Positions 10,436 through 50,644 of a stretch of DNA of 64,000 nt are shown here, piece after piece. The position numbers and the translations under genes were made by a program. Within the stretch, counting starts at the first letter, position 1; each line of letters opens with the position of its first letter. The stretch comes from Sumerlaeia bacterium (GTDB lineage: Bacteria; Sumerlaeota; Sumerlaeia; SLMS01; JAHLLQ01). Where the stretch lies: positions 1 to 64,000 of the forward strand of contig JAVJSW010000068.1 in the NCBI GenBank assembly GCA_040219255.1, read 5' to 3'. The notes below the pieces were generated by a model. The model did not search any database. It was not told where the DNA came from and worked only from the letters and a program-made list of their open reading frames with translations.

Positions 10436-10474
10436 CTCTCTGTGTAACCTCTCTCCTCTGAGTCCTCTGTGGTT
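10436..10474 (-). repeat. Dispersed ~38-bp repeat, type A, copy 1
   Basis: Reverse complement is AACCACAGAGGACTCAGAGGAGAGAGGTTACACAGAGAG; four more copies in the window. Confidence 0.88.
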
Positions 10475-10585
10475 ATGCACGAGCGACCCTTCGCTTTCCT
10501 CCAAGCCCACGCTTGCTTCCTCCCCGCCCCGCTCGCCATGGTGGGCGAACCTATCCCCTTGTCCATGCAGGAGCGCCCCCCACCC

Positions 10586-11677
10586 ATGACTGACCTGACC
10601 TACACGCCCCCGAAAACCATCGAATGGACCGGTGACGTCTGCCGTTTGCTGGACCAGACGAAATTGCCGGGCGAAGAAACCTACCTGGACATCGCCGACG
10701 AAACCGCGATGTGGGGCGCCATCAAGCGTCTCTCCGTCCGCGGCGCCCCCGCCATCGGCGTCGCCGCCGCCTATGGGCTCTACCTCGGCGCGCGCAACCG
10801 CCAGCCCCAGACCCGCCAGGACGCCATCGCCGCCACACGCGAAGTGGCTGATTACCTGGCCACCAGCCGCCCCACCGCCGTGAACCTGTTCTGGGCCCTG
10901 GACCAATGCCGCAAGGTGGCCGAGGAACGCCCCGCCGAAGCCTCCGCCAGCGACGTCCTCGACGCCCTTCTCAAAGCCGCCAAAGCCATCCACGCCGACG
11001 ACCGCGAACGCTGCGCCGCCATCGCCCGCCATGGCGCCCCGCTGCTCTCGGGCAAGGCCGGCGTGCTGACCCACTGCAACGCCGGCGCCCTGGCCACCGC
11101 GGGCGTCGGCACGGCCCTCGGCGTCATCATCGAGGGAGCCCTGCGCGAAAACGCCGCCATGACCGTCTATGTGGACGAAACACGGCCTCTGCTCCAGGGC
11201 GCCCGCCTGACCGCCTGGGAGCTGAAGAATGCCGGGGTCGCCCATCGCCTCATCGCCGACAACATGGCCGCCACGGCCATGCAGCGCGGGCTCGTCCAAG
11301 CCGTCGTCACCGGCGCCGACCGCATCGCGTCCAACGGCGACAGCGCCAACAAGATAGGCACCATGCCCCTGGCCATCGTGGCCAGGCATTTCAACGTGCC
11401 TTTCTACATCGCCGCCCCCCTCTCCACCGTCGATCTGAGCCTGGGCACGGGCGCCGACATTCCCATCGAAGAACGGGACGGCGAAGAGATTACCTCCATC
11501 CGGGGGCAACAAGTTGCGCCGCTCGGTACATCCACGTTCAATCCTGCATTCGATGTCGTTCCCGCCAGTTTAATCGAAGCCATCGTCACCGAAGTCGGAA
11601 TCGTGCGTAAACCGTTCAGTATCAATCTCCGAAAGGCTTTTGAGGTCGACTTCCGGGGTGGCGAAACCTTGGCGTAA
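10586..11677 (+). CDS. mtnA: Methylthioribose-1-phosphate isomerase
   Basis: LLDQTKLP, VRGAPAIG, RPTAVNL, THCNAGALAT, ETRPLLQGARLT, GADRI, NKIGT. Confidence 0.97.
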   Translation: MTDLTYTPPKTIEWTGDVCRLLDQTKLPGEETYLDIADETAMWGAIKRLSVRGAPAIGVAAAYGLYLGARNRQPQTRQDAIAATREVADYLATSRPTAVNLFWALDQCRKVAEERPAEASASDVLDALLKAAKAIHADDRERCAAIARHGAPLLSGKAGVLTHCNAGALATAGVGTALGVIIEGALRENAAMTVYVDETRPLLQGARLTAWELKNAGVAHRLIADNMAATAMQRGLVQAVVTGADRIASNGDSANKIGTMPLAIVARHFNVPFYIAAPLSTVDLSLGTGADIPIEERDGEEITSIRGQQVAPLGTSTFNPAFDVVPASLIEAIVTEVGIVRKPFSINLRKAFEVDFRGGETLA

Positions 11678-11765
11678 ATGCCGCTGTTTAGGGGGCTTGA
11701 CCGTTCCAAATTGAGACGCCATTTTGTCCTTGGCGCGGGGGGTCTCGGTCCCTAACGTCCTCCTC

Positions 11766-12122
11766 ATGCCACGCCGAGATGGACGCCCCGACAACACACC
11801 ACGCGTCCGCCGCCCTCCAGGGCTTTTTGGAACCCTGTGGCGATTGGGAATCGTTGGTGGCATTCTCTTTGTCCTCGCCGGACTCATTGCCTACGGGCTG
11901 ATTTGGAAGTTCGTGAAAACCCCGGAAGTCGAAGCTCCCGACCTGCTGGCACTGCCCGCGGGTGAGGCTCTCCTTCGCGCTTCCGAAACCGGTTTCGCCC
12001 TCCGCGTCAGCGCGTACGAGCCGAGCGAACAGTTCGAGCCTGGAACCGTGCTGGCACAACGCCCGCCACCAGGCGCCTGGGCAAAGAGTGGGGCGATCAT
12101 CTCGCTGACGGTTTCGGAATAG
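11766..12122 (+). CDS. Single-PASTA-domain membrane protein
   Basis: One TM helix, then VEAPDL...GTVLAQRPPPG...ISLTVS PASTA pattern. Confidence 0.8.
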   Translation: MPRRDGRPDNTPRVRRPPGLFGTLWRLGIVGGILFVLAGLIAYGLIWKFVKTPEVEAPDLLALPAGEALLRASETGFALRVSAYEPSEQFEPGTVLAQRPPPGAWAKSGAIISLTVSE

Positions 12123-12235
12123 CGCGGACCCGCAACGGTCCGCCTCCGGACCGCTCGAGCAGCATCGGGGCTCGCCGCTCTCCCCTCCCAAGGGGAGACG
12201 CCGGCGAGCCCTCTTCTTTTTCCCGAGCAGGCGAA

Positions 12236-12275
12236 CCCTCTGTATAACCCCCGTCCTCTGAGTCCTCTGTGGTTA
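12236..12275 (-). repeat. Dispersed repeat, type A, copy 2
   Basis: Reverse complement is TAACCACAGAGGACTCAGAGGACGGGGGTTATACAGAGGG. Confidence 0.88.
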
Positions 12276-12457
12276 AATGCCAAGAAACCCGGCTCCCCCC
12301 GCCATCTCCCCTTGCCCGCCGCCGCCAAGGAAGCGAAGAAAAAGCGCCACCCCCTCATTTTTCCCTCGACACAGCCCCTCTCTTTTGTTTCGCTTTTGCT
12401 TCGTTGGACCGGAAACGAGCGAGTGCCTCGCAGGCTGGCGCGGGCGGCTTTATTTTG

Positions 12458-12469
12458 GAACACACGTTT
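12458..12469 (+). promoter_or_regulatory. Candidate LexA (SOS) box GAAC-N4-GTTT
   Basis: GAACACACGTTT lies 22 bp upstream of the recA ATG and matches GAAC-N4-GTTY. Confidence 0.45.
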
Positions 12470-12491
12470 TTGACGAATAGGACTTGGCATC

Positions 12492-13592
12492 ATGGCAAAG
12501 GCAACGAAATCCGCCCCGGCGGCAATGAGCGCTTCAGACCGGGAAAAGGCGTTGGAGGCGGCTCTCGCCCAGGTTCGCAAGAACCATGGCGACGGCCTGA
12601 TCCGCCGCTTTAACGACGAGGACACAACGGTGACGGCGGTGATTCCCACCGGCTGCGTCTCGCTCGACCGCGCGCTCGGCACCGGCGGCCTGCCCCGCGG
12701 GCGCATCGTCGAAATCTACGGACCCGAATCGTCGGGCAAGACCACCGTCGCCCTCCACTGCGTCGCCCAGGCCCAGGCCATGGGCGGCGTCGCGGCCTTT
12801 ATCGACGTCGAGCACGCCATCGACCCCAAATACACCCAGGCCCTCGGCGTGAACCTGGACGAACTCCTGATCAGCCAGCCCGACTACGGCGAGCAGGCCC
12901 TCGACATCGTCGAGACGCTGGTGAAGAGCAACTCGGTCGACATCATCGTCCTCGACTCGGTGGCGGCGCTGGTGCCGCGGGCCGAACTCGAAGGCGAAAT
13001 GGGCGACAGCCACGTCGGCGTCCACGCCCGCCTCATGAGCCAGGCGCTGCGCAAACTGACCGGCGCCATCAGCCACGCCAAAACCACCGTGATCTTCATC
13101 AACCAGATCCGCGAAAAAATCGGCGTGATGTTCGGATCCCCGGAAACCACCACCGGCGGACGCGCGCTCAAATTCTACTGCTCCGTCCGTATCGACGTGC
13201 GCCGCATCGGCGCCATCAAGGACGCCGGCGACAACGTAGGCAACCGGGTCAAGTGCCGCATCGTGAAGAACAAGTGCGCCGCGCCCTTCCGCGAGGCGGA
13301 ATTCGACATCATGTTCGGCCAGGGCATCAGCCGCGAAGGCGACCTGGTGGACATGGGCCTGGAAATGAAAATCGTCGATCGCTCCGGCGCCTGGTTCTCC
13401 TACAAGGGCGAACGCCTCGGCCAGGGGCGCGAGAACGCGAAGACCTTCCTGCGCGAGAACCCGGACATCCGCGCCCGCATCGAAGCGGAAGTCCGCGAAT
13501 CGATCGGCATCGCTCCCGTCAAGGGCGGCGATCCCGACGAAGCGGTGACGGACGACGACGACGCGGGTTCGAGCGGCAACGGGCGAAAGTAA
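12492..13592 (+). CDS. recA: Recombinase RecA
   Basis: GPESSGKTT Walker [31 protein letters not shown]. Confidence 0.99.
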
Positions 13593-13781
13593 AGGGAAAT
13601 CCCTCGGCGGGACGGAAACGCGCTTCCTGGCGTTGCAAGGCGGCAACGCCCGGTGGCAGTATCGCCGGTCCGTCCGGATGCGAACCCGCCGGGAATGGCT
13701 CAGGGGCGCCCCTTGCGGACTGGCACCCATTTGGCACTCAGGCGGTGCCGCTCTGCTGACTATCCCGTTTTAGGACCTGCT

Positions 13782-15008
13782 TTGACCGCCGAACCGCACG
13801 TTTCCACCGACCAATCCCTGCCCCGGGCCCTCAATGGCGCGCCCCTGCCGCCCGAGGGCTCCACGATGCGCTTGTGCCGCATCGCCACGGAGGACAACCC
13901 CCTGACCCTGGAGGGTGGCTCGCGCATCGGCCCGGTGGATATCGCCTTCGAAACCTACGGGACGCTCAACGAGGAGGGCTCGAACGCGATCCTGGTCTTT
14001 CACGCGTTCAGCGGATCGCCCCACGCCGCCGGTTTCGACCCCGTCGGACCCGGCAACGGGCTCTGGACCGAGGAGAATCATCAGGGCTGGTGGGACGATT
14101 TCATCGGCCCAGGCAAAGCGCTCGACACGCGCCGTTACTGTGTCATCTGCATGAACTTCCTGGGCGGTTGCTACGGCTCGACGGGCCCGATGTCGCCCAA
14201 CCCGGAGGACCCGGACCGCAAGCCCTATGGCTGGAACTTCCCCTTCATGAGCATCGGCGACATCGTGGACAGCCAGGTGGCGGTGCTCGATCTCTTGGGC
14301 GTGAAGCAGTTGGCGGCGATCCTGGGCGGCAGCATGGGCGGGCTCTGCGTGCTGGATTTCGCGGCGCGCTATCCCGAGCGGGTGCGCTGCGTGATCCCCA
14401 TCGCCACCGGTTTCCGCGCCACGGTGCTGACGAAGACCTTCAATTTCGAGCAGATCCTGGCGATCGAGACGGACCCGAACTTCAAGAGCGGGAACTATTA
14501 CGACGGACCCCGTCCGGATTTCGGCCTGATGCTGGCCCGCATGATCCAGCACAAAACCTTCTTCTCCCTGCAAGTCATCGAGCGCCGCGCCAAAAATACC
14601 ATCGTCCAACCGGGCGATGTGCTCTCGTGCTATGAACTGCGCCATCAGGTGGAAAGCTACCTGCTGCATCAGGGCCGGAAATTCGTGAAGCGCTTCGACG
14701 CGAACAGCTACCTGCGGATCATCGCCGCCTGGCAGTCCTTCGATCTGCCAAAGGAAGTGGCCGGCGGCAACTCCGCCGAGACGCTGCGGCGCTGCAAGGG
14801 CCAGAAGTGGATCTTGTTCTCCATTGACTCGGACGTCTGTTTCTTCCCCGACGAGCAGGCGGAGATCGAGGCCGCCCTGAAAGCCAACGGCGTCGCCCAT
14901 CAGTACATCACGGTCCACAGCGATAAAGGCCACGATTCGTTCCTGCTGGAACCGCACCTCTACGCGCCACATATCAACTACGCCCTGTCCGACTTGATGG
15001 AGGGCTGA
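13782..15008 (+). CDS. metX: Homoserine O-acetyltransferase
   Basis: FETYGTLN, GWWDDFIGPGKALDT, GGSMGG nucleophile, RFDANSY, GHDSFLLE. Start codon uncertain (TTG 13782). Confidence 0.92.
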   Translation: MTAEPHVSTDQSLPRALNGAPLPPEGSTMRLCRIATEDNPLTLEGGSRIGPVDIAFETYGTLNEEGSNAILVFHAFSGSPHAAGFDPVGPGNGLWTEENHQGWWDDFIGPGKALDTRRYCVICMNFLGGCYGSTGPMSPNPEDPDRKPYGWNFPFMSIGDIVDSQVAVLDLLGVKQLAAILGGSMGGLCVLDFAARYPERVRCVIPIATGFRATVLTKTFNFEQILAIETDPNFKSGNYYDGPRPDFGLMLARMIQHKTFFSLQVIERRAKNTIVQPGDVLSCYELRHQVESYLLHQGRKFVKRFDANSYLRIIAAWQSFDLPKEVAGGNSAETLRRCKGQKWILFSIDSDVCFFPDEQAEIEAALKANGVAHQYITVHSDKGHDSFLLEPHLYAPHINYALSDLMEG

Positions 15009-15126
15009 GGGCCGAATCGCGGCACATTCCAGAGCTTGATTCTCTGCCCCTGGCCTTCTCAGGGTGAATAACCATCACGGCCAAGGCGTAGGGCCGTGAC
15101 ACCTGTGACCGACTGCGGGGGGGCCA

Positions 15127-15762
15127 ATGGGCGATCGAACTTTTTTGCCAGCCGTACCCCGTTTCGCCATCGGAGCCTTCGCCCTGATGGCGCTGGTGAT
15201 GGGCATTCAGATGGCCTGCCACAAACCCCCGCTGCGCGAGGCGGGCCCGTTCCCCGAGCCGGTGCAGCGCGACTTGGCGGAATCGGTGGAGCTGCCGGCG
15301 CCGCCGGGCTACGCCATCACGGGTCTCGCCGAGTACACGGTCGAGGCCCTGATCGTCAGCCGGTCTCGTTATCGGCACGACCGCGAGGCGGAGCTGGCGC
15401 CGGTGGATTTGCTGCTGGCGTGGGGGCCCCTGACGCGCGAGCCGAACCTGACTGGCATCCGGTGGAGCCAGGGCGGGCGATGGGGTCAGTTCCGCTATGA
15501 GTACGGCACGTTGACCGTGGACCAGCGCGAGATCGAGCAGTGCAGCGCCAACACGCACATCATTCCGGCCTGGGGCGACGAGGCCCTGCGCGGCGAATTG
15601 CTGTCGCTGCGGCGGGGCGACGCGGTGCGGCTCGAGGGGTATCTGGTGCGGGTGCGGGCGACGGACGGCAACTGGCAGTGGAATTCGTCGCGGCGGCGCA
15701 CCGACACGGGGTCCGGGGCTTGCGAAGTCTTTTACGTGACGGGCTGGACCTACCTGAACTGA
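15127..15762 (+). CDS. Conserved hypothetical exported/lipoprotein
   Basis: Hydrophobic leader ending MAC; APVDLLLAWG, SANTHIIPA and RTDTGSGACEV look like a conserved hypothetical family. Confidence 0.75.
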   Translation: MGDRTFLPAVPRFAIGAFALMALVMGIQMACHKPPLREAGPFPEPVQRDLAESVELPAPPGYAITGLAEYTVEALIVSRSRYRHDREAELAPVDLLLAWGPLTREPNLTGIRWSQGGRWGQFRYEYGTLTVDQREIEQCSANTHIIPAWGDEALRGELLSLRRGDAVRLEGYLVRVRATDGNWQWNSSRRRTDTGSGACEVFYVTGWTYLN

Positions 15763-15810
15763 TCGCGGCGCAGCGACAAAGCCCCGAAGACCCGTCCCAC
15801 AGGAAAGCCC

Positions 15811-15945
15811 ATGCTCTTCGACTCCAGCTTCATCGGCTCAGCGCTTGGCGGCCTCGCCTGCTTCGGGGTGATCGTGTTTTGTGTGCTGGCGGTTTGGGGT
15901 TGGGACCGGGCCCGGGGGAGGGAAGGACACGACGAAAATGAGTAG
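15811..15945 (+). CDS. Small single-TM protein (44 aa), not in ORF track
   Basis: AGGAAAG RBS, then MLFDSSFIGSALGGLACFGVIVFCVLAVWGWDRARGREGHDENE*. Confidence 0.55.
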   Translation: MLFDSSFIGSALGGLACFGVIVFCVLAVWGWDRARGREGHDENE

Positions 15946-16015
15946 CTGCGGAGGGCGCGGTCGCCAGAAGTAACGAAACAAGAAGCCCCGCCAGAGAACC
16001 GGCGGGGCGAAGACA

Positions 16016-16456
16016 TCAGACTTTCTGTTTGGCGGTCCGGGGCCTGCGGGTTTCGGGCTTCTTGCGATTGTGGGCGAGGGCGGCGTTGAGTTCGCGGATG
16101 CGTTCGTCGCGTTCGGCGATGGCTTCGCTCATTTCGCGAAGGCGGCTTTCCAGGAGGCGATGGGGGGGATTTTCCGCGGAGGCGGGGTGAGTCGATTCGA
16201 GCGGCTGGCGCTCGGTCATGCGCATCGCCGCCGCCGCCAAGCCAAAGAGGGCGCGGAGTTCATCGTCGGAGGCGTCGAGAAAGCGGCCCAGGTAGAAGGC
16301 CATGTCGGGCGTCGTGGCGAGGGCGATGAAACGGTCCTCGGCGCGGCGCAGGTCGAGAGGGTTCTTCGGCGAGGGGTCTTGTGAGGCGGGCGCTTTTTCC
16401 TGTTCATTGTGGAACGGTTGGCGGCAGAGAGAGAACGTTGAGGCGGCGGATTTCAC
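16016..16456 (-). CDS. Hypothetical protein with C-terminal coiled coil
   Basis: 146-aa ORF; LREMSEAIAERDERIRELNAAL heptads and a basic tail. Start uncertain. Confidence 0.55.
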   Translation of the reverse strand: MKSAASTFSLCRQPFHNEQEKAPASQDPSPKNPLDLRRAEDRFIALATTPDMAFYLGRFLDASDDELRALFGLAAAAMRMTERQPLESTHPASAENPPHRLLESRLREMSEAIAERDERIRELNAALAHNRKKPETRRPRTAKQKV

Positions 16457-16773
16457 GGGTCAAGTAACCTCCGGGACAGGGTAGGGCAGAGTATATATTG
16501 GGTCGGAGAGCTGGAATTTCTAAGGTTAGCGGTAGCTGTTGGGAGCATCCCCGGGTGCCCAACTCTCGCGTCGGCACGGACGGAACCTCTTATAAAGCCT
16601 TTTCCTATGCAACCGGATTCCGTGTCACGATTTTCTTTTTGGTGTCATTAGGTAAACTATCGTTGACTAATAGCGCTTTCGCCCGCTATCCGATTTTTCC
16701 GCAACCCAGCCTCGACACGGCTTGGCTGTGACGGCCATAGTCCGCCGCCTTATGATGCTCGAATGCGAGAGGA

Positions 16774-19700
16774 ATGCCTAACTCGATGGCCCACGCTCCG
16801 GAACCCGAATCTGTTGAAAAAGTTGAAGATGCGACCGCCGATTCGCCCGGCGGGATGGACACGGCGGACCCGCCGGATAGGACCGAGGGTGCGGAAGACG
16901 CGGTGGCCGGCGATGGCGATTCGGAGCCCGGGCCGGAGTCTTCCAGAGAACCGGAAGCGGTTGCCGGCGTGGCCTCTGACGCGACCGATTCGGACGATCC
17001 GGAGGAGGACGGGGAGCGGCCACCGAACGAGCCGGAGAATCCGGATTTGCGCAGCTTCCGGGCGTTGGCGGCGATTTTCCTTCAGGGCGATTTCGTCGGC
17101 AATGTGGTCCGTTCGCTGATTATGCTGATGATGGGCGCCACGGTCCTGGGTTTCGAGGACCATAGCGACCGTAACCGGACGCTGCTCCACTTGGCGGCGA
17201 CGGTTCCGTGGGTTCTTCTGTCGGTCATGGGCGGCCATCTGGCGGATCGCTTCTCGAAGCGCAGCATTGTGGTGTGGGCGAAATCCGCCGAGATCGTGCT
17301 GATGCTTCTGCTGGCGCTGACGGTGTCCATGAACGTCGCTCATTCGAATTTCTGGTTTGTCAGTCTGATCGTGGTCTTCCTGCTCAGTTGCCAGACGGCG
17401 CTGCATTCGCCGGCGCGGGTCGGCCTGATCGCCGAACTGCTTCCCGAGCGGCGCCTCTCCTGGGCCTTTGGCGTGCAGGAAGGCCTGACCATCGTCGGGT
17501 TCCTGGCGGGAACCATCCTGGCCGGGTGGTATCACGGGTCCTACTCCGAGTCATTGCCGTTGCTGGCGCTCTTTCTCGCCGGGGTGTCGCTCTGCGGGCT
17601 GATCCTTTCGCTGGTGATTTCTCCCATGCCGGCGGCCGAACCCCATCGCCGAATCCACCTCTTCGATGTGGAGCAATTCACGGCGAATTGGAATGAAATC
17701 TATCATCACAAGGGACTGCGTTGGACGTCTCTTGGGACTGTCTTGTGGTGGTGCATGGCGACCCTCACCGGAATCACGGTGTATAAATATGGTCAGGACT
17801 ACCTGGCATTGGGGTCCGTTGGCACAACGATGCTTCTCATCTGTGTCGGGGTCGGGATCGCGAGCGGCAGTCTGGCGGCGGGCTACCTGTCCCGGGGCCA
17901 GATCGAGGTTGGCCTGGTCCCCTTGGGCGGCATCTTCTCCGCCCTGTCGCTGCTTCTGATGTATGTGGCGATGCAACTGGATGGTCAGGTCGTGCTGGGA
18001 TGCGTGTTCCTGACGCTCACCGGATTCTTCGCGGGCTGGTTCCTTGTGCCGCTGAGGGCATACGTGCTGCACAATACCCACCCGGAAACGCGGGGCGGAA
18101 TTCTGGGGGTCATCAATTTCCTGCAGTTCAGCGCGGTGGCGTTGTCTGGCCTCTTGTATTGGGTGCTGACGGACTTCGCGGAAGTTCAGGCACCAACGGT
18201 CTTCCTCTTTATCGGCCTGTGCTTCCTGGTGATTGGCTTCATCAGCCTCAAGTTGATCCCGGAAGCCGGGGTGCGGTGCGCGTTGCTTTTGCTGACGCGG
18301 GCGGTGTACCGGATGACGGTGCGGGGCGAGGAGAAGGTACCGGCGAAGGGCGGGGCGCTGCTGGTGAGCAACCACGTGTCGTTCGCGGACGCGCTGTTAT
18401 TACTGGCGGCGACGCACCGGGCGCCGCGCTTCGTGATCTTCGAGGACATGTACGAGAAACCGCTGGTGAAGCCGTTGGCGAAGCTGGCGAACTGCATTCC
18501 GATTTCGACGAAAATGCCGGCGCGCGAGGTGCTCAAGCGGCTTCATGAAGCGAGCCAGGCGCTGCGCGACGGGGACCTGGTGGTGATTTTCGCCGAGGGC
18601 CAACTGACCCGCACGGGCAACCTGCTGCCGTTTCGCCGGGGTCTGGAGCGCATCATGAAGGACGTGGAGAACGTCCCCATCATCCCGACGCATCTGGACC
18701 GTCTCTGGGGTTCGATCTTCAGCTTTAGCGGCGGCACGTTCTTCCGGAAGCTGCCGGGACGGATTCCTCATCCGGCCACGGTGAGCTTCGGCGAGCCGAT
18801 GCCGGGGGACACGCCGGCGTGGAAGGTGCGCCGCGCGGTGCAGCGGCTGGAAAGCGACGCCTGGGAAGAGCGCAAGACGGATGCGCCGCTGCTGCACCGG
18901 GCGGCGATTCGGGGGATGCGGCAACGGCCCCGGTTCGTTTCCGCGGCGGATCACAACACGGTCGAAGGCCTGCCGAACTGGAAGCTGCTGACGGGCATCG
19001 TGGCGATGGCGCGGGTGCTGCGCGAGGACTGGCGCGGCCAGGACATGGTGGGCATCTGTCTGCCGCCGAGCATCGCCGGGGTGCTGGTCAATTTCGCGGC
19101 GATGCTGAGCGGCAAGGTGCCGGTGAATCTGAATTACACGGCGCCAGGTACGTTCGAGAAAATCAAAGAGCTGTGCGAGCTGAAGACGGTCGTGACGTCG
19201 CGGGCTTTCATGGAGAAGCTGCCGCTTGATTTCCCCTGCGACGTGATTTACGCCGAGGACTTGAAAGAGCGCGTCACGAAGCCGGTGCGGCTGCGGGCCA
19301 TGATCGACGGGCTGCTGTGCCCGGTGCGGGTGCTCGAGCGCAGCCTGGGCGCGCCGCGCAAACGGTCGGTGGACGATCTGGCGACGATCATTTTCAGCAG
19401 CGGCTCCACGGGCATGCCGAAGGGCGTTCAGCTTTCGCACTGGAACATCCAATCGAACTACGAAGCGGTGGCGCAGATCTTCAAGCTGAGCCACGAGGAC
19501 GGGATCCTGGGGGCGCTGCCGTTCTTTCACAGCTTCGGGTTCACGGTGACGCTGGGGATGCCGTTCGCGATCGGAGTGCGGGCGGTGTATTATCCGAATC
19601 CGGTGGACGCGCGGGCGATCGGTTCCCTGGTCGAGAGGCACAAGCTGACGATGATCGTGGCCACGCCGACGTTCTATCAGACCTATAACCGGCGCGTGGA

Positions 19701-20463
19701 GCCGGGCGAGTTCGGAAGTCTGCGCATCGTGGTGGCGGGGGCGGAGAAGCTGCGCGACGCGGTGGCGCGGGATTTCAAAGCCAAGTTCGGCATCGAGATC
19801 CTGGAGGGCTACGGCTGTACGGAATGTGCGCCGGTGGTCACGGTGAACACGCCAAGCCACCGGGAAGCGGGAATCTATCAGGTCGGGCACCGGCCGGGCA
19901 CCGTCGGCCATCCCATGCCGGGGGTCAGCATCCGGATCCTGGACACGGAAACCGGCCAGGAGTGCGATCCAGACAAGCCGGGTCTGCTTTACGTCAAGGG
20001 CCCGAACGTGATGTCGGGCTACCTGAAGCGCGACGACCTGACGGCGGAGGTGTTGAAGGACGGCTGGTATTCGACCGGCGACGTGGCGGTGATGGAGGAG
20101 GACGGCTTTATCCGCATCACGGACCGGCTGTCGCGGTTTAGCAAGATCGGCGGCGAGATGGTGCCCCACATCAAGGTGGAAGAGGCCCTGCAAGCGGTTT
20201 TGGATCAGAGCGACCGCGTTTTCGCCGTGACCGGTGTGGAAGACCCCGGCAAGGGCGAGAAGCTGGCGGTCCTCTACACCTGCAAGGACGAGGAGATGGA
20301 GACGGCTCTGAAGGGAATCAAGGGAACCGATTTGCCGAACTTGTGGATTCCCAAGCGTGGCGATTGCCACCGGGTGGACGAATTGCCGATGCTGGGGTCG
20401 GGAAAGCTGGACCTGAAGCTGATCAAGTCGGTGGCGGCGGAGCGCTGCAACGCCGTCAGTTAG
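16774..20463 (+). CDS. aas: LplT-like MFS + 2-acyl-GPE acyltransferase + acyl-ACP synthetase fusion
   Basis: MFS (GHLADRFSKR), acyltransferase (SNHVSFAD, FAEG) and AMP-binding domain (FSSGSTGMPKG, EGYGCTE, TGD, RFSKIGGEMV). Confidence 0.95.
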   Translation: MPNSMAHAPEPESVEKVEDATADSPGGMDTADPPDRTEGAEDAVAGDGDSEPGPESSREPEAVAGVASDATDSDDPEEDGERPPNEPENPDLRSFRALAAIFLQGDFVGNVVRSLIMLMMGATVLGFEDHSDRNRTLLHLAATVPWVLLSVMGGHLADRFSKRSIVVWAKSAEIVLMLLLALTVSMNVAHSNFWFVSLIVVFLLSCQTALHSPARVGLIAELLPERRLSWAFGVQEGLTIVGFLAGTILAGWYHGSYSESLPLLALFLAGVSLCGLILSLVISPMPAAEPHRRIHLFDVEQFTANWNEIYHHKGLRWTSLGTVLWWCMATLTGITVYKYGQDYLALGSVGTTMLLICVGVGIASGSLAAGYLSRGQIEVGLVPLGGIFSALSLLLMYVAMQLDGQVVLGCVFLTLTGFFAGWFLVPLRAYVLHNTHPETRGGILGVINFLQFSAVALSGLLYWVLTDFAEVQAPTVFLFIGLCFLVIGFISLKLIPEAGVRCALLLLTRAVYRMTVRGEEKVPAKGGALLVSNHVSFADALLLLAATHRAPRFVIFEDMYEKPLVKPLAKLANCIPISTKMPAREVLKRLHEASQALRDGDLVVIFAEGQLTRTGNLLPFRRGLERIMKDVENVPIIPTHLDRLWGSIFSFSGGTFFRKLPGRIPHPATVSFGEPMPGDTPAWKVRRAVQRLESDAWEERKTDAPLLHRAAIRGMRQRPRFVSAADHNTVEGLPNWKLLTGIVAMARVLREDWRGQDMVGICLPPSIAGVLVNFAAMLSGKVPVNLNYTAPGTFEKIKELCELKTVVTSRAFMEKLPLDFPCDVIYAEDLKERVTKPVRLRAMIDGLLCPVRVLERSLGAPRKRSVDDLATIIFSSGSTGMPKGVQLSHWNIQSNYEAVAQIFKLSHEDGILGALPFFHSFGFTVTLGMPFAIGVRAVYYPNPVDARAIGSLVERHKLTMIVATPTFYQTYNRRVEPGEFGSLRIVVAGAEKLRDAVARDFKAKFGIEILEGYGCTECAPVVTVNTPSHREAGIYQVGHRPGTVGHPMPGVSIRILDTETGQECDPDKPGLLYVKGPNVMSGYLKRDDLTAEVLKDGWYSTGDVAVMEEDGFIRITDRLSRFSKIGGEMVPHIKVEEALQAVLDQSDRVFAVTGVEDPGKGEKLAVLYTCKDEEMETALKGIKGTDLPNLWIPKRGDCHRVDELPMLGSGKLDLKLIKSVAAERCNAVS

Positions 20464-20681
20464 GCCGTCCCGGGCAGAATGTCGAAGATCACCGCCCCGA
20501 CCAGCAGCCCAAGAAGGACCGCCACGGTGAGGCCGACAGCGAGGCCGCGGTTCCAATTGCTGGCCGGTTCGGCTTTGGTCAGGCCCGCGGAGGCGGTTTT
20601 CCCCAGCGTGCCGGCGAGGTTCCAGATGATGAGCGATACGATGAAGATGGCGAAGACGGCGAGAAAGATATAAAACATCAT
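20460..20681 (-). CDS. Small two-TM membrane protein
   Basis: AAGGA RBS before MMFYIFLAVFAIFIV; two hydrophobic segments; stop overlaps the aas stop. Confidence 0.65.
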   Translation of the reverse strand: MMFYIFLAVFAIFIVSLIIWNLAGTLGKTASAGLTKAEPASNWNRGLAVGLTVAVLLGLLVGAVIFDILPGTA

Positions 20682-20818
20682 GATTGTCCTTGGCCCTTTG
20701 CGGCGAACGATCGCCGCCAAAGAGCAGCGTTCTTATTGAGAACGTATGCGCAAGAGCCGTGCACAGTTTCCGCCGGGGCGGCGATTTTTTCCTCAGGACA
20801 GGCGTAATAGAAAGGAAT

Positions 20819-21253
20819 TCAAGGGTTGCCGTCGGCCTTATTTTCCGAAACACCGCCCTCGTAGCGGCGCTGAGTGCGGATCAGGATCGCCGAGCCCCGG
20901 GCGATGACCTTGGGTTCGGCGTCTTCGTCTGCGCGAAGTGAGACGGTGGCTTCGCCGTACAGGACGGTGCGCCCGGCGCGCGGGACGCGGCCTTCGACGG
21001 TGATGATGCCTTCGCGGGCGGAACCGAGATAGGTGATGTCGAGGTGGGAAGTGAGGGCGACCTCGCGCTCCAGGTCCAGATAGCCGTTCGCCGCCCGCCC
21101 CAGCGTATCGTCGACCAACGCGGCCACGATGCCGCCATGGAGCACGCCGAGGCGCTGGAGCAACTCGGGCCGCATGATGAGGCGCTGCTCGACATGGCCG
21201 GGCTCGACGATGAGGAATTCGGCGCCGAGGAACTCGAAAAAACGATCACGCAT
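20819..21253 (-). CDS. PaaI-family thioesterase
   Basis: GVLHGGIVAALVDD hotdog motif and LDITYL. Confidence 0.9.
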   Translation of the reverse strand: MRDRFFEFLGAEFLIVEPGHVEQRLIMRPELLQRLGVLHGGIVAALVDDTLGRAANGYLDLEREVALTSHLDITYLGSAREGIITVEGRVPRAGRTVLYGEATVSLRADEDAEPKVIARGSAILIRTQRRYEGGVSENKADGNP

Positions 21254-21260
21254 GGGGGAT

Positions 21261-21298
21261 AACCACAGAGGGCTCAGAGGTTGGAGTTTCACTGAGGG
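21261..21298 (+). repeat. Dispersed repeat, type A, copy 3 (degenerate)
   Basis: AACCACAGAGGGCTCAGAGGTTGGAGTTTCACTGAGGG. Confidence 0.78.
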
Positions 21299-21306
21299 GG
21301 TAAAGT

Positions 21307-21387
21307 AATTGGCCGCGGATGAATAAGATAAATCAGATTGTTTTCAAAACCTTTGATCCTATTCATCCCATTCATCGGCGGCTAATT
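21307..21387. repeat. Inverted-repeat element with 9-bp-period arms (type C)
   Basis: AATTGGCCGCGGATGAATAAGATAAATCAGAT ... ATCCTATTCATCCCATTCATCGGCGGCTAATT. Confidence 0.8.
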
Positions 21388-21391
21388 TCTA

Positions 21392-22831
21392 TCACGACAC
21401 CGCGTTGGCGACGATATCGCGGAGCTGGATGAGGCCGTACTTGGTGACGTTCATGAATTCGCGGGGGGTGGAAACGCCTTTCAAGGTGCGCATGATGAAG
21501 GCGGGGCGCATGTAGAACTGGCGCAGACCCCGGGTGCGGAGCTTGGCCAGGTCCTTCTTGGAAATCTTCATCGTGCCCATGGCGGGTTCGCCGTAGGCTT
21601 CGCGGGGGATGATGCCGTCGGGCAGGAGGCCTTTCTCCACCGCTTCTTTATAGAGCGCGGTGCCGGGGAAGGGATAGGGGTAGAAGATTTCGAGGAAGTC
21701 GGGATCGACCGCTTTGGCGAATTCGATGTCCTTCTTCAGGGCTGCTTCGTCGTCGTCGGGCAGGCCGAAGAGGAGGTACATGCTGCGCTTGATGCCGGCT
21801 TCGCGGGTGATGCGCAGGGCGTGGTGGGCTTGTTCGACGGTGGCTTTGCCGCCCTTGTTGATAGCGATCAGGGCGTCGTCGTCGCCCTTTTCGACGCCAA
21901 AGGCGATGATCCAGCAGCCCGCCTCGCGCATCGGCCCGAGGACTTCCTCGGTGATGGTATCGACGCGGCTGTTGCAGGCCCAGGAGATGTCGAGTTTTTC
22001 CTCGAGAATGCGCTCGCAGAGCGTGCGGACCCACTTCTTGTTTTGGGTGAAGAGGTCGCTGCGGAAGAGAAAGTTGCGGATGCCGTACGTCTCGACGCAC
22101 TGCTTGATTTCGCCGATGACGTTTTCGACGCTGCGATAGCGATTCACGAGGCCGCTGACCTGGTTCGCGAGGCAATAGGTGCAGGAGAACGGACAACCGC
22201 GGTTCGTGACCAGGGTGGTCTGCATTTCGTCCGTATCGGGCCGGCGATAGAGCGCGTTGTTCGTCAGGTGGCGGGCCGGATAGGGGATGTCGTCGAGGTT
22301 TTTGGGCAGTTCGCGGTCCGGATTGCGGACGATGCGGCCGTCGGCGTCGCGCCAGGTCAGGCCGTGGATTTCCGCCGTGGGGCGGCCCTCGCCCAGCTCC
22401 AGGCAGGTGAACTCGTACTCGCCGCGCAGCGCCAGGTCGAGCGACGGGTGCTCGGTCATGGCGCGCATGTCGAGCGTGTTGAAGTGGGCGCCTTTGGCGA
22501 TCGTCGTGCAGTCCGGCAGAACCTTCTTGATCAAGTCCGATGCCTTCATGTCGTCCTCGAAGGACGGCGTGGTGATCGACATGATGACGATGTCGGGGGC
22601 GAATTCCCGAAGGTCGCTTTCGAGGCGTGCCCAGCCCCAATCCTCCGCCGGATAATCGGTCAGGCGGCACTCGGCGCCGGCCTTCTCGAAGCAGGCGGCG
22701 GCGTACATCAGGTCCGTCGGCGGACGGAGAGCCACGGTGCGGAGCTTCTCAATGGGCGTTTGGCATCGGTCTTCGCGGATAAAGCGGCCGGTGGGGGGAA
22801 CGATGCAAAAGACGCGTTCGGGTTTGTTCAT
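21392..22831 (-). CDS. Cobalamin-binding radical SAM protein (HpnJ-like)
   Basis: B12 domain (RPPTDL, KGAH, RGEYE); NRGCPFSCTYC; WACNSRVD; FGVE. Confidence 0.9.
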   Translation of the reverse strand: MNKPERVFCIVPPTGRFIREDRCQTPIEKLRTVALRPPTDLMYAAACFEKAGAECRLTDYPAEDWGWARLESDLREFAPDIVIMSITTPSFEDDMKASDLIKKVLPDCTTIAKGAHFNTLDMRAMTEHPSLDLALRGEYEFTCLELGEGRPTAEIHGLTWRDADGRIVRNPDRELPKNLDDIPYPARHLTNNALYRRPDTDEMQTTLVTNRGCPFSCTYCLANQVSGLVNRYRSVENVIGEIKQCVETYGIRNFLFRSDLFTQNKKWVRTLCERILEEKLDISWACNSRVDTITEEVLGPMREAGCWIIAFGVEKGDDDALIAINKGGKATVEQAHHALRITREAGIKRSMYLLFGLPDDDEAALKKDIEFAKAVDPDFLEIFYPYPFPGTALYKEAVEKGLLPDGIIPREAYGEPAMGTMKISKKDLAKLRTRGLRQFYMRPAFIMRTLKGVSTPREFMNVTKYGLIQLRDIVANAVS

Positions 22832-22989
22832 GGCGAAGGGGCGGGAGATGTCCTTGGGTCATTGGCCTGGAGAATCGAGGACCCAGGCTGTCGGTTGAGG
22901 ACGCTAGGAGGAAGAGGTGGGCTCGTCAAGCGAAGGGAGAAGCGGGGCGAGCGTTGGCGGCCCGTGTGATGCGAGCCTGCCCCACGGCC

Positions 22990-23036
22990 GCCCTAATCCT
23001 TCAAGAAATCACCGCTGAGACGCGGAAAACGCAGAG
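22990..23036 (+). repeat. Dispersed repeat, type B end
   Basis: GCCCTAATCCTTCAAGAAATCACCGCTGAGACGCGGAAAACGCAGAG; matches 10295. Confidence 0.75.
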
Positions 23037-23273
23037 CTAGATGGCGCTTTTGAAGTTAGCCGGAACCACCGGCAGGCCTCGGTTCCTGGCTGGATGACCG
23101 GGAAACGGCGGCCGATTCTTTTGAAAAGTGCTTATCCATGCAGGAAATTGCCAGATTTGCCGCGACTTTGGTTGGGCCTGGCAAGTATTCGGATTTCGGA
23201 TTCATTTGCAGATTTCTTCTTTCGTTCGACTTAAAGCAGGCAACTCACTTTCCTGACCACACCTTTCAAATGA

Positions 23274-23312
23274 TCTCTGTGGAACCTCTGTCCTCCGTGC
23301 CCTCTGTGGTGA
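23274..23312 (-). repeat. Dispersed repeat, type A, copy 4
   Basis: Reverse complement is TCACCACAGAGGGCACGGAGGACAGAGGTTCCACAGAGA. Confidence 0.85.
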
Positions 23313-23424
23313 AGGATCGCGGCCACGGCCGAATCGGATCGGCGAAAAGCCTTGCATTGGCGCCGCCAATGGGTAGTTTTCCAGCCCCGCGCGACATGCG
23401 GGAGTGTGAGGAGACGGTGCCGTC

Positions 23425-23700
23425 ATGGCGACAACATTGCCCCGGGAACTGCTCGACATCCTGATTTGCCCGGAAACGCGCGCCCCGCTGGTGGTGGATG
23501 CGCAGGGGCATCTGGTCTCCACCGATGCGGCTTGCCGCCGGCGCTACAGCGTCGAGGACGGCATTCCGAACATGCTGATCGAGGACGCGGAGGTGCTGAG
23601 CGAGAGCGAGCACGCCGAGGTTCTCGCCTGGGCGAAGGCGAATCCCGACGCTCAGCCGGCAGCGACACGCGCCGCATGGAAATCCGCCGGGGCCAACTGA
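23425..23700 (+). CDS. Trm112-family protein
   Basis: LLDILICPETRAPL ... YSVEDGIPNMLIEDA. Confidence 0.9.
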   Translation: MATTLPRELLDILICPETRAPLVVDAQGHLVSTDAACRRRYSVEDGIPNMLIEDAEVLSESEHAEVLAWAKANPDAQPAATRAAWKSAGAN

Positions 23701-23796
23701 GCCGCCACCGAGTGAGCCTCCGGCAAAGTCTTACATCCCCCCAGGCCTTCGCCCGTCGAAAACCGTGGGCCGCAACAAACACCGAGGATTTGTCTC

Positions 23797-24168
23797 ATGA
23801 AGCAAGACATCCACCCCAAGTACGGTCGCGTCATTTTCCGCGACATCAACACCGGAGACCAATGGATTGGTTCCTCCACCAAGCTGAACGGAAAGCTGGA
23901 GACGATGGACGGCGAAGAACTGCCCGTCGTGCCGTTGGACATCAGTTCGCAGAGCCACCCGTTCTACACTGGCAAGGGCAACTTCCTGGATACGGAAGGC
24001 CGCATCGACCGCTTCAAGAAGCGCTTTGCCGCGCCGGTGAAGGGCAAGAAGGCGACGAAGGCCGAGAAGGCCGCCAACCGCGCGAAGGCCGAGGAGGAAG
24101 CTCCCTCGACCGAGGAAGCCCCCGCCGCCGAAGGCGCCGTGGCCGCGGAAGAAACTCCCGCCGAGTAA
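23797..24168 (+). CDS. rpmE2: 50S ribosomal protein L31, type B (Cys-free)
   Basis: [32 protein letters not shown]; Ala/Lys/Glu tail. Confidence 0.95.
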
Positions 24169-24199
24169 GTCGCCGGCTTGGCGATCAAGCAGGAATGAG

Positions 24200-24240
24200 G
24201 AACGGCGCCCCTGAGAGTGGGGGCGCCGTTCTTGCGTTTT
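24200..24240 (+). terminator. Intrinsic terminator
   Basis: GAACGGCGCCCC-loop-GGGGCGCCGTTC perfect 12-bp stem plus T-rich tail, between convergent genes. Confidence 0.85.
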
Positions 24241-24263
24241 GGGTATGCTTCAGTGTTCCGTTC

Positions 24264-34467: not shown

Positions 34468-34567
34468 AAAACCTCTTGCCAGGATCGGGCCACTCATGAT
34501 GACCTCCTTTCGTCAGGCCCCAGGGGTTGATCCCGAATGGCGGCCTATTGATTGGTACGATTGATTG

Positions 34568-42810: not shown

Positions 42811-43011
42811 GGCACAGCTCGGTGAGGAAAGTTTCTTGGAGGATAACTGGGCTTTTCCACAGGCGCTCGCAATCGTTCCAGGAAAAAACACCTCCTCTTA
42901 AGCGATTTTTGAGGCCCGCACAATCGATAGGTTGTCTTTTGGCCTCCCGCTCCATACAAATCCCATCCTAACAGCCCCTCGAATGGGACTCCTCAAGCGA
43001 AGGACGGCCGA

Positions 43012-44568: not shown

Positions 44569-44575
44569 TCGATCG

Positions 44576-45742: not shown

Positions 45743-45830
45743 GCCCATTTTGTCGACAAGTTTTCAACGCGCTGCCGAGAAGGAGTGCTTGAGAAAAAAG
45801 AAAACCCAAACCCCACGGAGGAACCCTCCC

Positions 45831-46979: not shown

Positions 46980-47019
46980 GACATTCCCCCACCACATCTT
47001 TCCGCAACGGAAAGGGGAC

Positions 47020-47068
47020 AAAGGGTCCGGGGCAGACCGTTCGCGGTTTGTCCCGGCTCTTTATTTTG
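47020..47068 (+). terminator. Intrinsic terminator
   Basis: CCGGGGCAGACCG-TTCG-CGGTTTGTCCCGG stem followed by CTCTTTATTTT. Confidence 0.75.
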
Positions 47069-47154
47069 AAAGCGAATTGTCAGCCTTGCGGACGACGGAG
47101 CTGGCGTGTTTTTTGTCAATGACAATTCCTCGCCGCGAGGTGCCCAACGCTCCC

Positions 47155-48210: not shown

Positions 48211-48216
48211 GGCACC

Positions 48217-50466
48217 CTACTTTTTCTTTCCCCGCAGCGCATTCGTGAACCAGTTCCCGCCGCCTTCCTTCTTGGCCGGTTTGGGGTCTTCGCGGTGGGC
48301 GGGCGCTCCACCGCCGCGCTGAGGGGGCGCCGAGGGATTGGCCTTCATCGAAAGGGCGATCCGTTTGCGCGGGATGTCCACTTCCATCACGGTGACATGG
48401 ACTTTCTGGCGGACTTTCACCACGTCGCCGGGGTCCTTGACGAAGTGATCGGCCAGTTGGCTGACGTGGACCAAGCCGTCCTGGTGCACGCCTAAATCGA
48501 CGAAAGCCCCGAACTTCGTAACGTTCGTCACAATCCCCGGCAGCTTCATCCCGACCTTCAGGTCCTTGATGTCGTGCACGGATTCGTCGAAAGCGAAGGC
48601 CTCGAAGGCGGCGCGCGGATCGCGGCCCGGTTTGGCCAGCTCCTCCAGGATGTCCTCGAGCGTCGGTAACCCGACCTTGTCCGTCACATAGCGCTTCAAA
48701 TCGATCCCCGCCCGACGCTTCGGATCGGTCATCAGATCCGCCACGGAACACCCCGCGTCCTTGGCCATTTGCTGGACGATGGGGTAGCTCTCCGGGTGGA
48801 CGGCGGACGCATCGAGCGGGTTCTTGGCCCCGCGAACGCGCAGGAACCCGGCGCTCTGCTCGAAGGCCTTCGGCCCCAGCCGCTTGACCTTTTTCAGCTC
48901 GGCGCGGCTCGTGAAGGCTCCATTCTCGTTGCGGTATTCCACGATGTTTTTCGCCAGCGTCGGCCCCAGCCCCGACACGTAGGTCAGCAGTTCCTTGCTC
49001 GCCGTGTTGACCTCGACGCCGACGCCGTTCACGCAGCTCATCACCGTGTCGTCGAGCGACCGCCGCAGCGCCGGCTGATCGACATCGTGTTGGTATTGCC
49101 CGACCCCGATGGATTTCGGGTCGATTTTCACCAGTTCCGCCAGCGGGTCCATCAGGCGCCGGCCAATGCTGACGGCGCCGCGCACCGTGACGTCCTTCTG
49201 CGGAAACTCTTCCCGGGCCACGTCCGACGCCGAGTAAATCGACGCTCCCGCTTCGTCCACCATCATCACTGTCTGTGGCAGCCCAAGCCCCCGCACGAAC
49301 GTTTCCGTCTCGCGGCTCGCCGTGCCATTGCCGATGGCAATGGCGTCCAGCTTGTGCTTCTGGCACAGGTCGCGCAACACGCGGCCCGCCTCCTCCTGCT
49401 TCCGGCCCTCGCCCAGTGTCGGGTAGATCACCGTGTCGTCGAGCAGCTTGCCCTGCGCATCCAGCACGACAACCTTGCAGCCGGTGCGGAAACCGGGGTC
49501 GATGGCCAGAACGCGCTTCTGGCCCAGCGGCGGCGCCAGCAGCAGTTCCCGCAGATTCGACACGAACACGCGGATCGCCTCTTCATCCGCGCGTTTCTTG
49601 AGTTCCGTGCGCATTTCGTTTTCCATCGAAGGCGCCAGCAGCCGCTTGAACCCATCCTTCACCGCCAGGGAAACCTGCTCCGACGCCGGACCCCGGCCCG
49701 ACACGAACTGCCGCGCCAGCGCCTGCTCCGCCTCGGCCTCCGGCGGCGTCACGGCCAGCTTCAGCACGCCCTCGTTCTCGCCCCGGAACATCGCCAGCAA
49801 CCGGTGAGACGGCGCCTTGTCCAGCGGCTCGCTCCATTCGAAGTAATCGCGGAACTTGGCGCCTTCCTCTTCCTTGCCCTTCGCCACCGTGCTGCCCAGG
49901 GTCGCCTTCGTGCGATAGAGGCCGCGCATACGCTCGCGTGCCGTTTTGTCCTCGGCCACGCGCTCGGCGATGATGTCGCGGGCCCCGGCCAGGGCGTCCT
50001 CCACCGAGGCCACGTCCTTCTCCGCGCTCACGAACTTCACCGCGAGGGCCTCTACTTTCCCTCCGCCATCCTGCGCCAGGAGCGCGTCGGCCAGCGGTTC
50101 CAGCCCCTTCTCGCGAGCGATCGTCGCCCGCGTCCGGCGCTTCGGCCGATAGGGAAGGTAAATGTCCTCCAGCTCCGTCAGCGACCGCGCCGCCTCCACC
50201 TTGGCCCGCAACTCCGGCGTCAAGAGGTCCCGCTCCTCCAGCGAAGCCAGGATCGCCTCGCGCCGCTTGTCCAGCTCCGCCAACTGCTCCAGTCGGTCGC
50301 GAATCGCCGTGATCGCCACCTCGTCCAGAAGGCCCGTCGCTTCCTTGCGGTACCGCGCGATAAACGGCACCGTGCCGCCCTCCGCCAGCAACCCTGCCGT
50401 CGCCGCCACCTGCTCGGTGCGAATGCCGAGTTCCTTGGCGATCAGTTGGTGGTACGTGTGCGACAT
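48217..50466 (-). CDS. tex: Tex family RNA-binding transcription accessory protein
   Basis: TVPFIARYRKE, DPGFRTGCK, EAGASIYSAS, IGVGQYQHD, C-terminal S1 domain. Confidence 0.97.
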   Translation of the reverse strand: MSHTYHQLIAKELGIRTEQVAATAGLLAEGGTVPFIARYRKEATGLLDEVAITAIRDRLEQLAELDKRREAILASLEERDLLTPELRAKVEAARSLTELEDIYLPYRPKRRTRATIAREKGLEPLADALLAQDGGGKVEALAVKFVSAEKDVASVEDALAGARDIIAERVAEDKTARERMRGLYRTKATLGSTVAKGKEEEGAKFRDYFEWSEPLDKAPSHRLLAMFRGENEGVLKLAVTPPEAEAEQALARQFVSGRGPASEQVSLAVKDGFKRLLAPSMENEMRTELKKRADEEAIRVFVSNLRELLLAPPLGQKRVLAIDPGFRTGCKVVVLDAQGKLLDDTVIYPTLGEGRKQEEAGRVLRDLCQKHKLDAIAIGNGTASRETETFVRGLGLPQTVMMVDEAGASIYSASDVAREEFPQKDVTVRGAVSIGRRLMDPLAELVKIDPKSIGVGQYQHDVDQPALRRSLDDTVMSCVNGVGVEVNTASKELLTYVSGLGPTLAKNIVEYRNENGAFTSRAELKKVKRLGPKAFEQSAGFLRVRGAKNPLDASAVHPESYPIVQQMAKDAGCSVADLMTDPKRRAGIDLKRYVTDKVGLPTLEDILEELAKPGRDPRAAFEAFAFDESVHDIKDLKVGMKLPGIVTNVTKFGAFVDLGVHQDGLVHVSQLADHFVKDPGDVVKVRQKVHVTVMEVDIPRKRIALSMKANPSAPPQRGGGAPAHREDPKPAKKEGGGNWFTNALRGKKK

Positions 50467-50605
50467 GGGCGTGGCCTCTTCCGGGAGCGTTCGATGCGGC
50501 GGCGGGGCATCGGAAACCCCCTCCGCCAAAGCCACCATTATCCGGCGCCCGGGGAGGGGGTGGTCAAATGGGATCGGGAGTGACGGGTGGGACGCCGCCC
50601 TTCTT

Positions 50606-50644
50606 TACCACAGAGGACTCAGAGGACAGAGGTTGCACAGAGAG
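50606..50644 (+). repeat. Dispersed repeat, type A, copy 5
   Basis: TACCACAGAGGACTCAGAGGACAGAGGTTGCACAGAGAG. Confidence 0.88.

Follow-up and report, generated by a model that had tools for sequence, protein, structure and literature searches.

REPIN/RAYT systems, described as doublets of repetitive extragenic palindromic (REP) sequences with a single-copy Y1 transposase (PMC3116915, PMC3337134), and miniature inverted-repeat transposable elements (MITEs) are the closest known analogues of a dispersed repeat family that we analysed in a bacterial draft genome (G000). The family was first noticed in the window, that is the whole 64,000-nt stretch studied here, positions 1-64000 of contig C68. 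The differences from both analogues lie in arm architecture, enzyme fold and promoter-coupled placement. As in REPIN/RAYT systems, short intergenic repeats in inverted doublets are far more numerous than the low-copy enzyme gene, itself enclosed by such repeats, and the sequence populations are lineage-specific. However, the arms of the present family consist of direct 7-nt words with an 8-10-bp period, whereas REPs are small palindromes; the bracketed gene encodes a GxxExxY protein of PD-(D/E)XK fold and not a Y1 transposase; one subfamily has 8-9-bp target-site duplications (TSDs); and the interiors of most doublets are mutually unrelated. That subfamily, 332 bp long, resembles the MITEs of DDE insertion sequences (ISs) in being short and non-coding, with terminal inverted repeats, 8-9-bp TSDs and 11 close copies. 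It differs from them in that no parent IS was found, its ends are multi-word arrays, and its insertion is polar and at a fixed distance from a -35 element.

Two other kinds of element invite comparison. Intervening sequences of 23S rRNA that bear an open reading frame (ORF), and other GxxExxY or four-helix-bundle cassettes, consist of a small ORF between inverted repeats that has entered host DNA without a recognisable transposase. Unlike them, the copies in the window lack an ORF and are intergenic, and PF05635 had no match in G000. The eukaryotic retrotransposons Ty3 and TRE5-A, tethered by transcription factors, insert at a set distance from Pol III genes. Insertion at a fixed distance from, and with fixed polarity to, the transcription start region is common to these and to the family described here, but they are RNA-mediated and eukaryotic, while the latter is a bacterial DNA element for which tethering is hypothetical.

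The repeat, here called the A arm, is a lineage-specific 36-38-bp array of four CACNGAG-like words; arms of the wider family generally have 3-4 words about 9 bp apart. We hold with moderate confidence that the A arm serves small elements, gene-less and non-autonomous, as one of their two terminal inverted repeats, with a GxxExxY protein presumably acting in trans and with insertion, or survival of insertions, apparently coupled to promoters. The core pattern ACCACAGAGGRCWCRGAGG, searched with up to two mismatches, had exactly five matches in the window, all without mismatch; shuffled sequence is expected to give 0.01, and none of 100 shuffles of the window reached five. These are the five copies reported by the first-pass annotation, which had been made from the sequence of the window. 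The related ends that it listed are also present: those at 10319 and 23012 are partner arms, with CGCNGAG words, of the A arms at 10438-10473 and 23275-23310, and those at 21313 and 61373 are the left arms of two separate small hairpins built from GGAT/GATGAAT-class words. Its statement that the window encodes no recombinase agrees with a Pfam scan of 56 crude gene calls, which gave zero matches to recombinase or transposase families, and the dispersal of the copies across 40 kb on both strands bears out that they are not clustered regularly interspaced short palindromic repeats. A single arm is indeed non-palindromic, as stated; the accompanying claim that the copies are not hairpins did not stand, because an arm forms one half of a hairpin-type element.

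G000 (5.35 Mb, 63.6% G+C, 83 contigs, 92% complete) was searched with an nhmmer profile built from the first 48 copies, and 93 A arms were found at E<0.01. The closest relative of its RecA, at 73% identity, comes from a Candidatus Sumerlaeia metagenome-assembled genome. A shorter second type, the B arm (TCACCACAGAGYCACAGAGGRCACAGAG), was counted by fuzzy search and has 61 copies. An array detector that is agnostic to the word (three 7-mers, each at least 6/7 alike, 8-10 bp apart) returned 633 arrays against 162 in the shuffled genome. The CRCNGAK form accounts for 156 of the 633, with 142 of these 156 outside gene calls; GCAAAGG and GATGAAT words make up minor classes. The words did not stand out in an over-representation analysis of 7-mers. 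Arms commonly form inverted, inward-facing pairs: where two strict arrays are neighbours at a distance of 20-450 bp, 26 pairs are (+,-), one is (-,+) and one is same-strand. The DNA enclosed by arm pairs is 40-300 bp long, non-coding, different from pair to pair and, by eye, A+T-richer.

Some minor features of arm anatomy were also observed. The 25 nt directly inside B arms are weakly conserved (GAGAtt.TTG.t.ttattGgagTT), for example at C28:10354-10395, C30:66569-66600 and C45:560-594. In GxxExxY cassettes the start codon directly follows the last word (CACGGAGATG, CGCTGAGATG). The inner block of the B arm may be a relic of the 5' end of a cassette or, as another candidate, a sub-terminal binding site. 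An almost perfect 135-bp palindrome with CGCNGAG arms is located at C1:80-214, and two to three CGCNGAG-class hairpin elements, nested or in tandem, are found at C46:30224-30534.

Mobility is best documented in the 332-bp subfamily. Twenty A arms extend into a longer alignment comprising 11 close 332-bp copies, eight diverged members of about the same length and one derivative with a deletion. Pairwise identity of the 11 close copies is 86% inside the element and 33% in the left flank. TSDs of 8-9 bp, scored as flanking 8-mers at least 7/8 identical, were present in 9 of the 20 copies, compared with 10 of 380 control pairs made from mismatched flanks. The subfamily is thus multicopy and short, with TSDs, and it is non-coding in that no reading frame is conserved and single-base indels shift the frame (by eye). 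Its terminal inverted repeats comprise the ends CCSYRATCCTTCA...CACC together with the inverted word arrays. A parent autonomous element with the same ends was not found in the 92%-complete assembly.

A second insertion comes from another genus. Three loci of genome G025 were compared with its congener G034, and two of them were analysed further. At C36:13950-14182 of G034, a 233-bp insertion with CACGAAT arrays is flanked by a 10-bp duplication (GGAWAAAGAG), and G025 has the single-copy empty site (C65). Judged by these alignments and duplications, the repeats are the ends of elements that transposed, at least for the 332-bp subfamily. The exact A arm occurred in 0 of 40 relatives, so that the positions of the copies are not ancestral, and as six singletons in a collection with one genome per species. 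The repeats had no Rfam match. No empty-site comparison could be made for the 10296-10473 element in the window, as ybeY and mtnA are not neighbours at any of the 13 loci fetched from relatives; upstream of mtnA these loci had zero arrays. Contigs from a sequencing run were fragments that break at the element, and none bridges an empty site. In one genus an orthologous hairpin is conserved (G034 C38:1355-1678, G025 C25:32170-32345); its G034 copy has an extra 148-bp segment that includes an inverted copy of the right flank and part of an arm, which suggests, as far as sequence comparison goes, rearrangement at the arms.

G000 has five PF13366/TIGR04256 (GxxExxY) genes, four of which lie directly between inverted arrays, with a different word at each gene (Table 1). 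The fifth, at C49:77675-78067, has neither arm and lacks the E-x-K motif (IDVFD in place of ELK); from its sequence it may be a decayed or domesticated copy. Gene-less hairpins with arms nearly identical to those of the cassettes were found in the same genome, eight with the CACGGAG arm and at least four with the CGCNGAG arm. To extend the comparison, 80 PF13366 loci were fetched from relatives and added to the five of G000, giving 89 scored genes from 37 genomes. Flanking inverted 20-mers (at least 16/20) were present at 52/89 genes versus 22/400 controls in which the flanks of different loci were paired. The flanking of GxxExxY genes by such motifs, which the first-pass annotation had mentioned, was thus observed both in G000 and in its relatives.

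The arrays also co-occur with the cassettes across genomes. A degenerate triple CACNGAG array occurs in 22/41 genomes of the class, while the reversed control pattern gave 0 to 3 matches per genome. PF13366 is present in 36/41 genomes, and all five genomes without it have 0 arrays. The genome-level table of cassettes and arrays leaves out G008 and G020, whose PF13366 matches were unfetched; in it, at least three further CACNGAG arrays were found in 11/12 genomes with a CACNGAG-armed cassette versus 6/27 without (Fisher 7e-5). The co-occurrence check that had been proposed therefore came out in favour of a link between arrays and GxxExxY cassettes of the same word.

GxxExxY/PDDEXK_3 is a very large family, for which a survey of PD-(D/E)XK proteins enters the function as 'Unknown' and notes 'multiple transfers' (PMC3424549). 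The structural model obtained here (pLDDT, the predicted local distance difference test score, 96) has a minimal restriction-endonuclease-like fold with a conserved D...E-x-K; among 30 sequences E28, D68 and K80 are invariant and E78 is nearly so. The best fold matches (Z 8.0-6.4) were all PD-(D/E)XK proteins, namely restriction-endonuclease-like proteins, Cas4, BpuSI, BglII and Hjc; Foldseek gave E >= 7.5e-3, and a sequence search of solved structures gave 0 matches. Co-location and co-occurrence, both correlations, make GxxExxY the leading candidate enzyme, which would bind and cut the arms. No description of a GxxExxY/word-array system was found in the literature searched. One paper mentions GxxExxY a single time, as gene neighbourhood only, and a passage of Aklujkar 2010 (PMC2996986) refers to multicopy intergenic sequences in no more than general terms.

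The fixed distance and polarity of the A arm relative to promoters, the strongest regularity of all, are new in this analysis and were absent from the first-pass annotation. The outer end of the A arm faces a gene start in 71/93 cases and a gene end in 22/93. B arms were stop-facing in 34 cases versus start-facing in 26, and 30 of the 34 stop-facing ones lie 0-56 nt past the stop codon. TTGAC was found 30-44 nt past the outer end (mode 38-40) in 21/93 A arms, compared with 0/93 on the opposite strand, and almost nowhere else within 110 nt past that end. With the relaxed box TTG[AC][CAT]N the count rises to 43/93, made up of 40/71 start-facing versus 3/22 stop-facing arms, and called start codons follow the box at a median of 80 nt. 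Throughout the genome, and in agreement with this distance, sense-strand TTGAC peaks 60-140 nt before start codons and an A/T-richer patch follows about 24-29 nt later; TTGAC therefore behaves as the -35 element of this organism. The coupling is absent from B arms (6/61), CACGGAG arms (4/40) and CGCNGAG arms (6/47). Reading outward from the arm, members of the 332-bp family have the 12-nt outer module, the 8-9-bp TSD, about 18-20 nt and then the box. Since the TSD lies between arm and box, the box is target DNA outside the element.

The same observations could be read as host regulation. The A arm would then be an upstream array of sites at which a global transcription factor binds and from which, at about -75 to -112, it reaches RNA polymerase; mobile spread would be secondary, and the spacing would result from selection rather than from targeting. 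In favour of this, the -35-like box lies at a set distance and with one polarity. The 38-40-nt spacing is also shared by arms that have the 12-nt outer module known from the 332-bp family and arms that lack it, which suggests that it is the word array from which the distance is counted. However, the downstream genes are functionally unrelated (mtnA, recA, tex, Trm112-like/L31), 22 of the 93 A arms face gene ends, and the exact arm is missing from all 40 relatives and limited to the six singletons elsewhere. The arms are moreover built like those of cassettes and hairpins, which lack the coupling, and recent insertions with TSDs already show the spacing. On this evidence we judge the regulatory explanation unlikely.

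Fainter still is the case for a MITE of a conventional DDE IS, in which a transposase making 8-9-bp staggered cuts would move the elements and GxxExxY would be merely a frequent passenger. Duplications of 8-9 bp are typical of DDE transposases, and G000 has 4 DDE_Tnp_1 and 2 rve matches besides two Y1_Tnp matches. Yet the flanks of six transposase-family loci (both Y1_Tnp, two of the four DDE_Tnp_1 and both rve matches) had no CRCNGAK arrays at their ends, so that the repeats match no IS end at the six loci read; the remaining two DDE_Tnp_1 matches are at contig ends, with flanks unread. Transposase_mut, like PF05635, had 0 matches in G000, and transposase-like genes were absent from between (+,-) arms spaced 0.3-4 kb. 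The co-occurrence of arrays with GxxExxY cassettes of the same word also speaks against a mere passenger, and we consider this explanation quite improbable.

A REPIN/RAYT-type mechanism, in which a Y1 (HUH) transposase moves hairpin doublets as single-stranded hairpins, is very improbable. It is true that a short repeat forms inverted doublets here (26 (+,-) pairs versus 1 (-,+)) and that two Y1_Tnp matches exist. RAYT genes, though, are typically flanked by their REPs, and here a Y1 gene flanked by the repeats was not found, no arrays lying within 3 kb of the Y1 locus at C68:109262-109921 or of the Y1 match on C56, which has no gene call. TSDs are also not expected from Y1 transposition. Equally remote is a purely RNA-level function, in which read-through transcripts would fold paired arms into long stems that terminate or stabilise them or are processed by RNase III, mobility being incidental: the position of 30/34 stop-facing B arms 0-56 nt past stop codons would suit it, as would the fact that the 332-bp element, read from B arm to A arm, folds better than shuffled sequence (z = -2.7, against 0.1 for the other strand), but there is no Rfam match, TSDs and -35 spacing are left unexplained, and such a role may be an added effect and not a true rival.

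The first-pass annotation had proposed an undescribed, trans-dependent system that mobilises gene cassettes. The mobile part of that proposal is supported, given the transposed ends (TSDs in 9/20 copies of the 332-bp subfamily against 10/380) and the lack of an Rfam match, and the system is apparently undescribed; the cassette role is not supported, as paired arms enclose 40-300 bp of non-coding DNA and distant arms enclose ordinary chromosomal genes. Gene cassettes between distant arms were rejected as a candidate. The sole cargo seen between arms was the GxxExxY gene, with a second, 224-aa gene call in the span C35:23041-24216. Compared with GxxExxY cassettes, the window elements share inverted arms of 3-4 direct 7-nt words with an 8-10-bp period and are gene-less between the arrays.

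Several results weigh against non-autonomous elements served by GxxExxY and inserted next to promoters. No CACAGAG-armed GxxExxY gene was found in the 92%-complete G000, where the nearest has CACGGAG arms, and six relatives have at least three arrays without a matching cassette among the fetched loci. No GxxExxY remnants were detected by hmmsearch in the interiors of gene-less elements. The 26 generic arm pairs gave no TSD signal, nor did the 52 armed GxxExxY cassettes (best match mean 4.0 versus 3.8 in controls, none at 7/8 or above); the duplication signal therefore consists of one subfamily and one insertion in another genus. At the promoters, a canonical -10 (TANNNT) follows the box in 3/43 cases only, and a sigma-70 consensus scan of 10000-24000 called none of the boxes. 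Gene positions throughout are those of our own crude gene caller, with approximate start codons, and the compared genomes are kin and hence non-independent, so that the Fisher p-value overstates the case.

If the A arm is the end of such an element, the word arrays would offer several landing sites to a protein acting in trans, most likely GxxExxY, which would bring two arms together and make a staggered cut at the target. Coupling of insertion, or of its survival, to the promoter-upstream region would leave each element between the stop codon of the upstream gene and the promoter of the next. A bolder version, possible but put forward only tentatively, is an element class with word-array ends in which a minimal 124-aa PD-(D/E)XK GxxExxY protein would be the sole mobilising enzyme and one lineage of which would integrate about 20 bp upstream of sigma-70-type -35 boxes with fixed polarity. 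If true, this would be a bacterial counterpart of promoter-tethered integration, so far known only from eukaryotic retroelements, and the elements offer a testable case of promoter-coupled insertion in bacteria. Should GxxExxY mobilise the arms, an orphan family would gain a function, and a new transposition chemistry would become open to test with one small protein and a 36-bp site. From their promoter-proximal positions the elements could rewire the transcription of housekeeping genes (recA, tex, mtnA, rpmE) or insulate it. Where the arms are recognised, about 150 intergenic sites per genome in the lineage are spared mis-annotation.

Table 1. Arms, elements, associated boxes and armed GxxExxY cassettes (positions without a contig name are in the window)
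Feature	Position	Strand	Detail
Core match	10455-10473	-	ACCACAGAGGRCWCRGAGG search
Core match	12255-12273	-	ACCACAGAGGRCWCRGAGG search
Core match	21262-21280	+	ACCACAGAGGRCWCRGAGG search
Core match	23292-23310	-	ACCACAGAGGRCWCRGAGG search
Core match	50607-50625	+	ACCACAGAGGRCWCRGAGG search
Partner (B-like) arm of ~178-bp gene-less element	10296-10344	+	outer module CCCTGATCCTTCAAGAAAATTCACC, then CGCGGAG/CACGGAG words
A-type arm, four CACNGAG-like words, inward-facing partner of 10296-10344	10438-10473	-	nhmmer E 5e-12
-35-like box TTGCTT, 39 nt past outer end of 10438-10473 arm, upstream of mtnA	10513-10518	+	
Solo A-type arm upstream of recA	12236-12273	-	nhmmer E 2e-7
-35-like box TTGCCC, 38 nt past 12236-12273 arm	12312-12317	+	
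A-type arm, inner (3') half degenerate	21262-21297	+	nhmmer E 3e-5
Separate small hairpin, CCGCGGATGAAT word class (GGAT/GATGAAT), beside A arm 21262-21297	21311-21383	.	
Left TSD copy, 9 bp	22982-22990	+	CCACGGCCG
332-bp MITE-like element	22991-23322	-	alignment of 20 copies
Right TSD copy	23323-23331	+	CCACGGCCG
-35-like box TTGCAT, 20 nt past TSD, upstream of Trm112-like gene and rpmE (L31)	23352-23357	+	
Solo A-type arm upstream of tex (minus strand)	50607-50642	+	nhmmer E 1e-13
-35-like box TTGACC, 39 nt past 50607-50642 arm	50562-50567	-	
Hairpin, CACGGAT word class, between divergent genes	61373-61487	.	CCACGGATGGGCACGGAT ... ATCTGTGAAAATCCGTGG
Armed GxxExxY cassette	C35:25547-25972		CACGGAG x3, arms 22/22 identical
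Armed GxxExxY cassette	C59:7331-7764		CGCNGAG
Armed GxxExxY cassette	C46		GCAAAGG
Armed GxxExxY cassette	C35:23797-24189		CGCAGATGAAT

As shown in Table 1, the copies in the window differ in completeness. The B-like arm at 10296-10344 begins 7 nt past the ybeY stop codon (10287-10289) and has the layout of the 61 B-type arms of G000. On the other side of this element, MtnA of relatives aligns only from residue ~35-47 of the called mtnA product, an alignment from which the true start is probably further downstream than called. The 332-bp element at 22991-23322 has a left B-like arm of CGCTGAG/CGCGGAA/CGCAGAG words and, at its other end, the A arm at 23275-23310 followed by the outer module GAAGGATCGCGG; an Rfam search of 22950-23400 gave nothing at E<=1. 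The exception among the five is the arm at 21262-21297, which has no -35-like box and ends, on its outer side, 8 nt away from where a thioesterase gene is called to start. The word class CCGCGGATGAAT of the neighbouring hairpin also brackets the GxxExxY gene at C35:23797-24189.

Other features of the window were noted beside the arms. A 534-aa ORF at 23352-24956 (+) is probably spurious, the region being occupied by the Trm112-like gene (23437-23700) and rpmE/L31 (23797-24168). On its inner side the solo arm 50607-50642 is accompanied by two small ORFs, 50660-50872 (-) and 51189-51443 (-), of which one belongs to DUF4160 and the other lacks a Pfam match; perhaps these correspond to the 'small TA-like genes' (toxin-antitoxin-like) mentioned in the first-pass annotation. 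A degenerate B-like arm, AAAATCACCGCTGGGGCGCTGGGATGGTTGG, is situated at 61330-61356 (+), immediately left of the CACGGAT hairpin. A Uma2-family putative restriction endonuclease (PF05685) of PD-(D/E)XK type, at 6303-6923 (-), has no adjacent arrays. The sole Rfam match in the window at the gathering threshold is a thiamine pyrophosphate (TPP) riboswitch (RF00059, 59.5 bits) at 53512-53638 (-), upstream of thiC (51466-53421).

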